DNA of 64,000 nucleotides from Tetramitus jugosus. Taxonomy: Eukaryota; Protista; Heterolobosea. A program made the position numbers and the translations under genes. Under the pieces are notes generated by a model that was not told the DNA's origin, did not search any database, and saw only the letters and a list, made by a program, of their open reading frames with translations. Location of the stretch: the NCBI GenBank assembly GCA_937625935.1, contig OW569393.1, positions 264,997 to 328,996 of the forward strand, in the 5' to 3' direction. Of this stretch, positions 60,508-64,000 are shown piece by piece (position 1 is the first letter of the stretch; every line of letters begins with the position of its first letter).

Positions 60508-60528
60508 GGGTTTGGGTTTGGGTTTGGG
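60508..60528 (+). repeat. Interstitial telomeric tract (GGGTTT)3GGG
   Basis: Same unit and orientation as the terminal array. Confidence 0.9.
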
Positions 60529-63177
60529 TGTGAATTAATCGAATAACGAAACTCCGTCAATTGGTGTTGGTTGTCTTTGTTGTTTGTCTCGTTGTATTCG
60601 TGGCGTTGGGTGCATCGCGATGAAACAACGAGTTTTTCGCACAATACATGTATTTTATTGTACATGTGCAAGTCATTGAAAGAGATTTTGGTTGAAGTGC
60701 ACTAATTGCCGAATAGATCGATTTCTCCGCAGAGTTGTTGCTGAGCAATTACTGTTCCATCTTCAAAGGTTTGATGGATGACAATCATCTGGGATTCCAT
60801 GGACCACCACACTATCAACATTAGACAGTAGGGTGATCTAGAAGCGTTTGGGTTGCACGAGTGTTGTCAAAAGAAGCGAAGGTTTGAGTGGACAAAGTTT
60901 TCAAACGATACTCGGAGGTTTGTTGCGGGTGTTGGAGGCGAAGCCGTTGAGAGTTTGGATTCTTGTTTGGATCTTCATTGTTATGATCTTCAAGAACCTT
61001 GCGACAATACAACAGGAAACGATTGACTCCAGATATTATGGTTGTACGACAACACTCGATGAAAGACCGCGGGGATACCTACAAAATATCGTGCAGTGAT
61101 TTAGATCAATTAGTCTGATTCATATATGAATAACCAAGCGTTGCACTACTTTTGTTCGAGAAAATTGGCCATTATCCTGTGATGATGTTCTGGTTCTAGT
61201 CCAGTAATTTCTGGCACCAGAAGCGTAGGCCTGGGTGGCCGTAGCGTTTACATTACACATCTAGGAGTCTTGATGTTGATTTTGGAGGCGAAGCCGTTCA
61301 GGGTCCAAAATTGAATCATCAAATGTTGAGTTGCTCTTGGTATTCACCCACTGAGTTCAATGGGAAACTGGAACAAAATCAATCTTTCAAGGTGATTGAG
61401 GATGCCATACTGTTCCTACTCACTAAAATTGATAAATTCATCGGTTTGTTCGTTTGCTGTAACATAAGACACTACATCGCCGTCTGATGAGAGAACTTCG
61501 TCGAAGGAAGAAACAAAATCTTCCTCCAAATCTTTCGCTTTTCTTTTCCTGTCTGTAACTCTTTGAACTTTGCTTTCGTTTGTTCTTTCAAGGGGAGAAC
61601 GTTGAATTAAAGCAAGTAACTGTTCATTATCGCCCTTGTCAAACATTTCGACCAAGTCAGCGAGAGCCACTGCTTTCTCGATGGCTTGAATACTTGATCG
61701 ATAGTGATTTCTTTTGTCCCTCTTTGAAGATTTCAGATGCTTCTTCGCGTCTTTGTATGCTTGAATAACAGCCAACTTCTCTGTCAACGTTTTTGCATGT
61801 TGCAACAAAATAGATTGCCAGTAAGAGGTCCATGCATGATTTTTTCCTGAAGTATCACGGGCAAGTACCTCGCTAAGGCCTTTGTTATGCTTCAGTACAA
61901 AACTTTTCATCTCTTTGGGTAACTTTCTTTGTCTAAAGCTTGTAACTGCCTCCAGTATCTTTCTTTTTGCCTTTCTCTTACGTTTAGGAACGATCAGAAC
62001 AGGAGATTCTTGTACAGTGCTCTCATGACCGCACTCTAGAATGAAATCAAGCACTTCTCCTATTGGATTATTAAAAGCATCTGGATCGAGCAATGACTGA
62101 ACGTGTTGAAATTTTGTCTGAGCAGTACGAATATAGGCCAATATGGATTTTTCATCGCGCCAACCAATATGAGTCTTGATGGATATGTAATCGTTCGTGT
62201 CAACGGTGTCCTTAGACTTGATACTGTTGAGCAAGAATTCAAGAATTGACATACACAACCAGAACGAAGTGATCGGGGTGTGTACCTCTTGGCTAGTAAT
62301 TTTTGATGCACTCAACTTCATGGCTTTCCCCAGCCCATCATTCTCAACAGCATCTGTATCAGTGTTCAAACAGGAAAAGAGAGGCCAAGTTTTGCATTCA
62401 TCTTTGATTTTAAAATCACCATGCTCTATCATGTCCCTAAAATCTTCTCGTACAAAAACTTTGCGTTTCGTCGAAAGATACCAGAGCAGAGCTAAATTGG
62501 GACAATTGTCAATTGAACCAGTTCCATATATCGTTTGTTCTCTTGGTTGCGACAACAGAATCTTATCCTTCACAATAGTGAACACGATCACAACCTTACC
62601 TTTCACAAGGTGACAATTGATATGTTGCACTTGCGCTGCGACATAAGTATCCGTCCTTTGTCCGCCTGCTCTTCCAAACTTGATCAACGCATGTGTTCGT
62701 GCATCTGACTCATCATACAGATTGAGCTTTGCGCTCCATTTTTTCAGGTCATTGTTCAACAAAGGTGCTACCTTATGAACTTGATTACCATACTTGCGCA
62801 GAAGAGCCCGTAGTAAGTCTTTAAGTTCATTCCCGAAATCTTGTTTCGGATTTCCTCGGTTTGTATCACGTAGGTGATTACTTAAACTGTTTGCGAATGT
62901 ATCTCTTACAGTTTTGTAACTGTAATTTAATTCTACTCTCATACTCCAGAGGAACAGCAAGTATGTAACTTTTTTGACAGGGAATGGCTCCTGTCCTTGG
63001 TAGGAAACGAAATCTGGCTCCGCTACCATGGTTTCAAAGAACATGAGGTAATTTCGTTCGGCGTACAAACGAATTTTTTGTGTGTTGGGAGCAATCCTTA
63101 GTTCAGTTGTCGCAGCCAGTGATTGTATCCTTTGTTCAAAAGATTGAGGGGCTTCATTGATTCGATGGGTTGGGGTT
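60529..63177 (-). mobile_element. Telomere-embedded tyrosine-recombinase element (Crypton/DIRS/TATE-like), probably a decayed copy
   Basis: Segment bounded on both sides by TTTGGG repeats and carrying a YR ORF; no RT seen. Confidence 0.65.
61416..63167 (-). CDS. Tyrosine recombinase (phage-integrase family); frame open into the telomere; RxxR box frameshifted
   Basis: APNT...Y...FF N-terminal region; GGQR (Arg); KDK (Lys); [19 protein letters not shown] in the alternate frame; HIGW...SILAY (Trp/Tyr). Confidence 0.85.
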
Positions 63178-64000
63178 GGGTTTGGGTTTGGGTTTGGGTT
63201 TGGGTTTGGGTTTGGGTTTGGGTTTGGGTTTGGGTTTGGGTTTGGGTTTGGGTTTGGGTTTGGGTTTGGGTTTGGGTTTGGGTTTGGGTTTGGGTTTGGG
63301 TTTGGGTTTGGGTTTGGGTTTGGGTTTGGGTTTGGGTTTGGGTTTGGGTTTGGGTTTGGGTTTGGGTTTGGGTTTGGGTTTGGGTTTGGGTTTGGGTTTG
63401 GGTTTGGGTTTGGGTTTGGGTTTGGGTTTGGGTTTGGGTTTGGGTTTGGGTTTGGGTTTGGGTTTGGGTTTGGGTTTGGGTTTGGGTTTGGGTTTGGGTT
63501 TGGGTTTGGGTTTGGGTTTGGGTTTGGGTTTGGGTTTGGGTTTGGGTTTGGGTTTGGGTTTGGGTTTGGGTTTGGGTTTGGGTTTGGGTTTGGGTTTGGG
63601 TTTGGGTTTGGGTTTGGGTTTGGGTTTGGGTTTGGGTTTGGGTTTGGGTTTGGGTTTGGGTTTGGGTTTGGGTTTGGGTTTGGGTTTGGGTTTGGGTTTG
63701 GGTTTGGGTTTGGGTTTGGGTTTGGGTTTGGGTTTGGGTTTGGGTTTGGGTTTGGGTTTGGGTTTGGGTTTGGGTTTGGGTTTGGGTTTGGGTTTGGGTT
63801 TGGGTTTGGGTTTGGGTTTGGGTTTGGGTTTGGGTTTGGGTTTGGGTTTGGGTTTGGGTTTGGGTTTGGGTTTGGGTTTGGGTTTGGGTTTGGGTTTGGG
63901 TTTGGGTTTGGGTTTGGGTTGGGTTTGGGTTTGGGTTTGGGTTTGGGTTTGGGTTTGGGTTTGGGTTTGGGTTTGGGTTTGGGTTTGGGTTTGGGTTTGG
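63167..64000 (+). repeat. Telomere (TTTGGG)n, G-rich strand running 5'-3' toward the end
   Basis: ~830 bp of near-perfect hexamer to the window end; variant units at 63167-63177 and ~63916-63920. Confidence 0.97.

Follow-up and report, generated by a model that had tools for sequence, protein, structure and literature searches.

The window, a 64,000-nt stretch of heterolobosean DNA, ends in a tyrosine recombinase (YR) gene that lacks its 5′ end and runs directly into a terminal TTTGGG array. We read this as a decayed, 5′-truncated copy of a heterolobosean YR-only element that is Crypton-like and likely targets TTTGGG, with the outer part likely lost and the break healed by telomerase. Taken as a whole mechanism, YR targeting included, this reading is evenly poised between right and wrong. 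Truncation plus healing alone is very probable. The window copy is without its 5′ end, and its RSxR motif has fallen out of frame. The inner junction is found again at another locus, and the outer junctions vary.

The features are collected in Table 1. The tract layout is the one originally predicted, with an inner tract and an array reaching the window end. The two tracts are in phase, since they lie 2670 nt apart (445 x 6). TTTGGG is given as the candidate telomere repeat of Naegleria gruberi (PMC3622300).

Table 1. Features at the end of the window, in positions of the whole stretch.
Feature	Position	Strand	Remark
Inner telomeric tract (GGGTTT)3GGG	60508..60528	+	joins host DNA (ending ...GAA) to the fixed inner end of the element
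Terminal (TTTGGG)n array	63168..64000	+	~139 units, first repeats irregular; caps the broken copy
Terminal module with CA-rich stretch	60529..60611		common to several related units, which diverge after 60611-60622
46-codon ORF (MYNKIHV...)	60447..60665	-	enters the inner tract; judged not to be the YR N-terminus
Degenerate junction-like relic GAAGCGTTTGGGTT	60841..60854	+	13/14 identical to the inner junction
~93-nt direct repeat, first copy, diverged	60865..60954		downstream of the YR
~93-nt direct repeat, second copy	61212..61304		63/93 identical to the first copy, E 1e-9
5′-truncated tyrosine recombinase (YR) gene	61416..63167	-	start and ~108 N-terminal codons missing
Stretch between two compensating indels	62232..62305	-	conserved RSxR motif out of frame here
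Imperfect inverted match to inner terminus 60538-60561	63143..63166	-	directly at the break

The recombinase and its family

The window protein is a tyrosine recombinase of a heterolobosean family, and its identity as a YR had been correctly proposed. Its structure model (mean pLDDT 59) has the Cre/Xer-like catalytic fold of tyrosine recombinases, aligning to Cre (Z 13.3, rmsd 11.0 over 193 residues; in another alignment, Z 12.6, rmsd 3.3 over 135 residues) and to XerD (Z 11.0, rmsd 2.7 over 122 residues). A model of family member P0002 (pLDDT 45) was too poor for use. Across 21 aligned rows, in P0002 numbering, R268 and K297/K299 are invariant and S395, R397, G428 and Y438 occur in at least 90%; the motif is mostly RSxR, with HSxR in P0049 and P0053. 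The family thus retains what are, by analogy, its catalytic residues. Sequence searches of Pfam and PDB with the window protein alone gave no match, and neither did PDB sequences searched with the family profile. Among 21 family members, Pfam gave Phage_integrase in 3, a weak NDC10_II in 2, and GCR1_C or DUF3504 in none. The Atlas neighbours of the YR are eukaryotic YR clusters. Named homologs include KAL9657423.1, KAL9654698.1, KAL9656588.1, KAL9646611.1, KAG2381543.1 and EFC43670.1.

Because relatives also abut telomere repeats, telomeres are the likely insertion site of the family. G-strand TTTGGG translations are found in 4 of 60 homologous proteins (0.05 expected), and in a quick tree the telomere-adjacent members fall on at least three separate branches. 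In those four proteins (P0003, P0006, P0039 and P0059) the sequence after the tracts is known from protein alone and may include assembly artefacts.

The only relative seen as DNA is L001, a distant one (26-27% identity) and the single locus found among the 52 candidates of a second JGI scan; the first scan gave none. It is a 5.6-kb unit between a short inner TTTGGG tract (436-453, ~2.8 units) and a terminal array (6039-6142), with both tracts in the same direction. An intact YR (ATG 2505) is its only long ORF; it also holds five diverged 146-nt tandem units. Neither an RT nor a TIR was found in L001, whose outer end may likewise be a healed break. The idea of a YR mobile element tied to TTTGGG is supported at the level of the family, by the position of L001 between two such tracts and by the recurring inner junction described below. 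IMG/VR scans found no relative. The polarity of the YR relative to the telomere is opposite in the window copy to that in L001, P0006, P0059 and the close relatives P0003 and P0039 (implied, for the proteins); this mixture is unexplained.

Truncation and decay of the window copy

The minus-strand YR frame is open from the terminal array down to its stop at 61416, and in this frame the first TTG is at 63068 and the first ATG is at 63044. The original prediction took significance from a frame reading PN straight out of the telomere. The frame is indeed open and does read PN, but its openness through the array carries no information, because the C strand reads PN, PK or QT and can hold neither a stop nor an ATG.

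The missing 5′ end can be seen in relatives. P0004, the closest relative spanning the N-terminus, is 73% identical from the first residue and 108 residues longer N-terminally, and of 36 homologs whose alignment covers the first 45 residues, 25 carry 81-283 extra N-terminal residues. The extension is not universal, since the distant full-length P0049, P0053, P0061 and P0062 start just 4 residues ahead of the window ORF. A 1422-nt contig of run X4 runs 315 nt beyond 63164 with no telomeric repeat, and 30 letters past that point, translated by hand, give RLRSDLVPAH in frame into RINE, where P0004 has RTRNDLAPSH-IINE. This continuation is a single contig of depth 4.8, and the X4 copy also seems frameshifted (P0010 starts mid-gene).

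These 5′ ends bear directly on the proposal that a telomeric att site splits the integrase, which would be silenced through integration and made whole in a circle as N-peptide-(PN)n-YR. Both tracts do share a phase, and the ORF starting at ATG 60665 does run for 46 codons into the inner tract as PNPNPNP, in the same phase. Shuffles seldom gave an ATG-started ORF of at least 46 codons in the needed frame (0.9-1.7%), although any in-frame ATG ahead of a stop is found in 18-21%. The CA-rich stretch at 60560-60610 cannot be the leader of this ORF, as had been suggested, because it lies downstream of the ATG and within the ORF. The peptide itself is unlike real N-termini: among 60 homologs it has no similarity (one match, E 4.6), and a PN linker close to the N-terminus is seen in none of them. 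It is also disrupted in other copies, with codon 4 turned into a stop by a T>A variant at 60656 in X1, X4 and X5 contigs and its ATG eliminated by a 134-nt deletion in X1, X2 and X3 contigs. True N-termini are contiguous in relatives, X4 passes the junction while appearing, by 30 letters, to share the same inner end, and the YR of L001 is whole, with its own ATG. The out-of-frame RSxR motif of the window copy, described below, also counts against the model. Ordinary 5′ ends in relatives and differing outer junctions had both been named in advance as refuting the split, and both were found. The split-integrase model is largely refuted, and we consider it very improbable.

Integration of an SSV1-type element leaves the N-terminal part of its split integrase at the opposite end. 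The likeness is superficial, consisting of a YR frame that begins at the element boundary. Here the N-terminal part has simply been lost and is not found at the far end; the inner-end ORF is unrelated to the homologous N-termini, and the true N-terminus lies past 63164 in X4.

The window copy is also without a complete catalytic set. Its RSxR region reads ITSFW, with the motif found in an alternative frame, and an 8-nt difference in this region sets it apart from the other copies; P0010 has the motif in frame. Assembly error was ruled out as the cause of the indels because the X1 and X2 contigs are identical. The integrase of the window copy is silenced by decay, not by integration. This frame shift had been overlooked in the original prediction.

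Inner and outer junctions

The inner junction, GGG joined to TGTGAATT (GGG/TGTG), is present at two loci. At the second (run X3) the flank is other DNA, likewise ending in GAA, and the tract is just GGGTTTGGG. Host contigs of X1 and X2 stop 37 letters past 60500, a point that corresponds to a 30-mer of the tract plus 9 nt; such ends are expected if other loci share the inner junction. Loose ends lie at 60611, 60617 and 60622 in runs X1, X2, X4, X5 and X3.

Junctions had been expected to be identical in all copies. The inner one recurs, but the outer one varies by copy, at 63167 in the window and at about 60870 elsewhere, where GGGTTT caps it. The latter cap lies about 16 nt beyond the relic, a loose end is present at 60857 in runs X2 and X3, and the relic is the single occurrence of TTTGGGTT outside the tracts in the window. 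The ~93-nt repeat at 60865-60954 has no Rfam match. Other copies carry deletions of 104-264 nt. Contigs of X8 and X9 end near 63153 at a depth below 4 and are uninformative on the outer end. Summed contig depth declines outwards along the element; this measure does not count copies and is compatible with every model. No contig of the 7 runs joined an outer end back to the inner end. This does not speak against circles, since long repeats interrupt the contigs and the inner tract was masked for one set of runs.

The break at 63167 may not have been random. The YR could have used a cryptic, end-like inverted site in its own gene, giving a 2.64-kb non-autonomous unit movable in trans. In inverted orientation, the 24 nt next to the break match the inner terminus (P ~0.001, post hoc). 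None of 996 element windows reached the score of this match, 13, against 8 of 6036 host windows and 21 of 20000 shuffles. A second, diverged copy extends to at least 63148 in X1 and X2. However, the match was picked post hoc among 81 inverted pairs, and its arms sit at unequal offsets (9 nt and 0 nt from the tracts) without the 6-8 bp spacing described as typical of YR sites (PMC3212892). L001 ends without such a match (score 7), and X4 reads through. We regard this use of a cryptic site as quite improbable. Under truncation and healing of a telomere-targeting element, which we prefer, the inverted match is unexplained.

Host recombination could also account for a fixed inner junction. Yeast Y′ elements are subtelomeric units spread in this way, and the unit here could be similar, with the YR a passenger Crypton or just a circle-maker; this has perhaps a modest chance of being correct. 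In this route, an end that has shortened or newly healed would invade the short inner tract carried by a circle or a second end, and would then copy the unit. Inner tracts are indeed short, at 1.5 and 3.5 units and ~2.8 in L001, and the first ~90 nt are common to units with different interiors. Mixed YR polarity is expected if a YR element inserted independently. There is also a precedent in MoTeR copies, described as spreading between ends by break-induced copying (10.1101/845669). Conversely, host recombination leaves unexplained the telomere-abutting YRs from at least three branches and the L001 unit, which contains nothing except an intact YR, and 9 nt of tract offers little homology.

RNA-templated attachment or insertion at telomeres, as in Terminon/Athena elements or MoTeRs, would make the YR mere cargo. 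The 3′ end of a transcript with (CCCAAA)n would join a G-rich end and be copied by an RT encoded upstream or in trans. The anatomy of the window copy fits: its sense strand ends 3′ in C-rich repeats, and it has a fixed 3′ end, telomere-capped 5′ truncation and a shared 3′ module (PMC6431247). Its ORF is oriented away from the telomere as in Terminon/Athena elements. The polarity is wrong elsewhere: the YR sense strand enters G-rich repeats in L001 and, by implication, in P0003, P0006, P0039 and P0059. L001 has no Athena-type or other RT, although one could have been lost with a 5′ part or be supplied in trans, and the longest homolog among 46 matches is 921 aa. A hammerhead ribozyme by the 3′ C-rich repeats was sought and rejected, with no CTGANGA core on either strand of 60500-61450 and no Rfam match. 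We consider the RNA-templated route improbable.

Discussion

In the mechanism we favor, an intact YR would excise the unit as a circle between two tracts and reinsert the circle into a telomere. Long inner tracts would afterwards break or shrink, leaving 1.5-3.5 units, and breaks within the unit would be capped by telomerase at a TG/G seed. Several observations count against this reading. The subfamily shows no intact outer end and no circle in its assembled contigs, a fixed asymmetric att core does not predict mixed YR polarity, and inner tracts this short are as compatible with attachment to a newly healed end as with insertion in an array.

More broadly, and tentatively, the family may be an old, diverse, minimal YR-only lineage with TTTGGG as its att site. 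Its members would then cycle as circles, form chains of units with spacers of 1.5-3.5 repeats, and break chromosome ends that telomerase heals; an end-like site within the YR gene may yield non-autonomous derivatives like the window copy. We rate this broader view as slightly less likely than not.

Telomere targeting is already known for a YR retrotransposon (TATE) and for giant endogenous viruses, as is repeat targeting by CryptonV. In the literature covered, which left Repbase Reports and subscription papers outside its scope, no minimal YR-only telomere element and no such heterolobosean family is described. If confirmed, the element would offer a one-protein system for YR recombination within a non-palindromic direct-repeat target, and it would probably help drive the turnover of chromosome ends among relatives of Naegleria. 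The split-gene switch, the more striking idea, is absent.

Comparison with known systems

MoTeRs are described with short inner tracts, 5′ truncation and de novo telomeres (10.1101/845669). The window copy resembles decayed MoTeR and Terminon copies in its fixed 3′ end on a short tract, its 5′ truncation and its de novo telomere cap (10.1101/845669, PMC6431247). Those elements are RT-driven, and in these accounts neither is described as driven by a YR; Terminons are also reported to carry hammerhead ribozymes (PMC6431247).

TATE and the majaniviruses are YR elements in telomeric repeats (PMC6681497, PMC10871703). Like the majaniviruses and pemoniviruses, the family described here likely shows YR-associated insertion at telomere repeat motifs, but those are viral genomes of 278-401 kb, whereas the unit here is about 3-6 kb with no viral genes (PMC10871703). 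TATE, from Leishmania and other kinetoplastids, is described with gag-like, YR and RT/RNase H ORFs and split direct repeats (PMC6681497). The likeness is that of a YR element at a telomeric hexamer in Discoba, seen here at the inner junction, GGG/TGTG, of two loci. Unlike TATE, L001 has a YR alone, with no TATE-type RT/RNase H ORF there or in the surviving part of the window copy, and the repeat pair on the 3′ side in the window is 68% identical.

Cryptons encode a YR only, end in short direct repeats and are proposed to pass through a circle (PMC3212892), and CryptonV is reported to target microsatellites (PMC8869645). The family shares with them a YR as sole enzyme, no RT, no long terminal repeats, probable short direct end repeats (TTTGGG in L001, whose outer end may be a healed break) and non-autonomous derivatives (PMC3212892, PMC8869645), along with the weak NDC10_II matches. 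YR-only content without an RT is seen in L001; the window copy is silent on this by itself because it is truncated. The likeness is one of features, and GCR1_C and DUF3504 were matched in none of the 21 members. Most family members also have RSxR where YRs usually have HxxR. What sets the family apart from the Cryptons described so far in these sources is its apparent target, the telomere repeat at chromosome ends, and its heterolobosean host.

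Results

The telomere-linked YR element of the original prediction is real. The window carries a broken, decayed member of a telomere-associated family of tyrosine recombinase (YR) elements. The family is apparently undescribed so far; titles and abstract openings, the scope of the search (Repbase Reports, subscription papers and supplements lay outside it), held no description of heterolobosean YR elements at telomeres. The anatomy, truncation and decay of the element, and the telomere link of its family, are shown by the sequences. The coordinates of tract, array, open minus-strand frame and small ORF were confirmed in the window sequence, as was the phase match of the two tracts, which lie 2670 nt apart.

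Features of the window copy and of L001, a distant relative seen as DNA
Copy	Feature	Position	Length or units	Remark
Window	inner telomeric tract	60508-60528	21 nt	
Window	small ORF	starts 60665	46 codons	runs into inner tract
Window	YR frame	stop at 61416		minus strand; open all the way from terminal array
Window	terminal TTTGGG array	up to window end	~139 hexamers	
L001	short TTTGGG tract	436-453		
L001	AT-rich DNA	after short tract	~2 kb	
L001	intact YR	2505-4895		own ATG
L001	diverged 146-nt repeats		five units	
L001	terminal array	6039-6142		

The open frame running out of the telomere had been taken as evidence for an integrase gene split at a telomeric attachment site. Because the C strand of TTTGGG encodes only PN, PK or QT, the frame stays open after any break healed in that orientation. 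Homologs were compared in a set of 60 (all fetched proteins, near-duplicates included, with the window's own translation and an unrelated 39-aa cluster member left out). Thirty-six align within residues 1-45 of the window ORF, and 25 of these carry an N-terminal extension of 81-283 residues. The 11 without one comprise seven short proteins (56-278 aa), probably fragments, and four distant full-length ones that start 4 residues earlier. The homolog P0004, 73% identical from the first residue of the window ORF, has an N-terminus 108 residues longer. A 1422-nt contig from sequencing run X4 continues 315 nt beyond 63164 with RLRSDLVPAH, in frame with RINE (30 letters, translated by hand), and this matches RTRNDLAPSH-IINE of P0004. 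On the plus strand the continuation is GT-rich at the junction, a plausible seed for telomerase.

An ORF as long as this small one in the needed frame is rare by chance (0.9-1.7% of shuffles), but its proposed role as the integrase N-peptide is not supported. Against the 60 homologous proteins it gave a single match (E 4.6). T>A at 60656 introduces a stop at its codon 4 in X4 (depth 4.6 of 8.7), X5 (32.1 of 41.9) and X1 (3786 of 54433), and in contigs of X1, X2 and X3 its ATG is lost to a 134-nt deletion. The CA-rich stretch once read as its leader sits within the ORF, not upstream. The 5′ end of the window YR gene is lost, not moved, and the split-integrase model finds no support.

The 24 nt at the break form an inverted match to 60538-60561, noticed post hoc. 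Its score is matched in none of 996 element windows, in 8 of 6036 host windows and in 21 of 20000 shuffles. Folded as RNA, the pair is more stable in the YR sense orientation (-20.9 vs -16.4 kcal/mol), and L001 has no equivalent. An end-like site may have guided the break.

Among copies, the inner end recurs and the outer end varies. Host contigs of X1 and X2 stop at a 30-mer made up of the inner tract plus 9 nt, presumably the point where loci merge, and X3 has a second locus with other flanking DNA and just GGGTTTGGG ahead of the same inner end. One contig in X2 and X3 switches from the inner ~340 nt to GGGTTT repeats near 60870, some other units have only the first 83-94 nt in common with the window copy, and deletions of 104-264 nt occur in other copies. 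X2 and X3 contain two versions of 61503-61713 that differ at 16 of 211 nt, which implies at least two copies or alleles; among the loose ends listed, the second extends to 63148.

Several further features were observed in the window. A single 5-nt variant repeat at ~63915-63925 shifts phase within the terminal array. Within the element, a diverged repeat pair (60865-60954 and 61212-61304) keeps TTGGAGGCGAAGCCGTT exactly in both members, and a hairpin may persist there via compensating changes; the pair has no Rfam match and may act as a structured RNA or bind a protein. The last host gene (57754-60359) is spliced, encodes ankyrin repeats and a coiled coil, contains near-identical duplicated intron-exon blocks (~58475-58680 and ~58930-59170), and has its stop 148 nt from the inner tract. 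At 13499-13933, a 75-nt tandem repeat of 5.8 copies lies within a 513-aa ORF that opens with a RING-like motif.

The window YR protein has no Pfam match, and a full HMMER scan found 46 relatives, the longest of 921 aa. Its predicted structure matches Cre (Z 13.3), XerD (Z 11.0) and Ndc10 (Z 8.4); among 21 members, Pfam matches Phage_integrase in three and NDC10_II in two. R268 and K297/K299 are invariant in the 21 aligned rows, with S395, R397, G428 and Y438 each conserved in at least 90%. The window copy carries its RSxR motif in a different frame, flanked by two compensating indels; P0010, a homolog 92% identical to the window YR, has it in frame. If expressed at all, the window YR would lack catalytic activity. 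Assembly error was ruled out as the source of the indels, as X1 and X2 contigs are identical to the window there.

Looking up 20 of the 46 matches gave homologs named from Willaertia magna (four), N. lovaniensis, N. fowleri and N. gruberi. TTTGGG has been put forward as the telomere repeat of Naegleria gruberi (PMC3622300). On these grounds the host of the window is probably a heterolobosean. The N. gruberi member P0038 carries a chromodomain at its C-terminus (Pfam E 4.7e-10), which may steer the protein to heterochromatin. P0021, a 520-aa N. fowleri homolog recorded in identical form on two contigs, each with its own locus tag, stops before the RSxR motif.

Five-residue translations of the TTTGGG G strand occur in 4 of the 60 proteins (0.05 expected); P0003 and P0039 break off within the YR gene, P0006 and P0059 within C-terminal tails. 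On a quick tree the telomere-adjacent members require at least three label changes and cluster no more strongly than shuffles (126 of 500), so the telomere link is spread over the family. L001, the sole relative obtained as DNA, has no ORF reaching 150 aa beside the YR.

Some details of these relatives stand apart. After the G-strand translation, P0003 (residues 510-525) and P0006 (residues 757-780) have ~11 nt and then C-strand-like PKPNP or PPNPT, a pattern that marks either two telomeres joined head to head or an assembly join. The outer end of L001 (6020-6045) reads CCCTTGGGTTACCCACTAA directly followed by TTTGGG, with the short inverted arms ACCCA and TGGGT separated by 6 nt; this distance equals YR core-site spacing and has no counterpart at the L001 inner end. 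The TATACTCTA motif is common to the L001 83-nt repeats before the inner tract (191-391) and to the 146-nt repeats that follow the YR (5323-5975), so the DNA upstream of that tract may be another unit's end; blastn gave only weak matches between the two repeat types.

Discussion

The simplest reading would be Crypton-like excision, then reinsertion at a TTTGGG repeat, since the unit lies between TTTGGG tracts of like direction and its sole gene is a conserved, catalytically complete YR. For the element, we infer circles, YR activity and target choice. Yeast Y′-type elements spread by host recombination, and such recombination through the short tract is the main rival, which accounts equally well for the mixed polarity and the shortness of the tracts. 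In five relatives (L001, P0003, P0039, P0006 and P0059) the YR points toward the G-rich end, opposite to the window copy. Between close relatives, this difference in polarity is unexplained. Attachment to the telomere by an RNA route fits the anatomy of the window copy, going by extracts of two reports (PMC6431247, 10.1101/2021.04.23.441226), but there is no reverse transcriptase and no hammerhead, and YR polarity in the relatives is wrong for it.

Crypton-like insertion would have been followed by a MoTeR-like history of inner-tract breaks, 5′ loss and a new telomere. In MoTeRs, inner tracts longer than three units tend to break, and copies have lost their 5′ part and gained a new telomere, with relics of as little as 1.5 units (10.1101/845669). 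Among other systems, Cryptons carry short direct repeats at their ends and are proposed to pass through a circular intermediate (PMC3212892), CryptonV families have microsatellites as their target (PMC8869645), and two YR elements reside in telomeric repeats, namely TATE (PMC6681497) and majaniviruses (PMC10871703). The element would work similarly to a repeat-targeting Crypton and is a putative member of that group.
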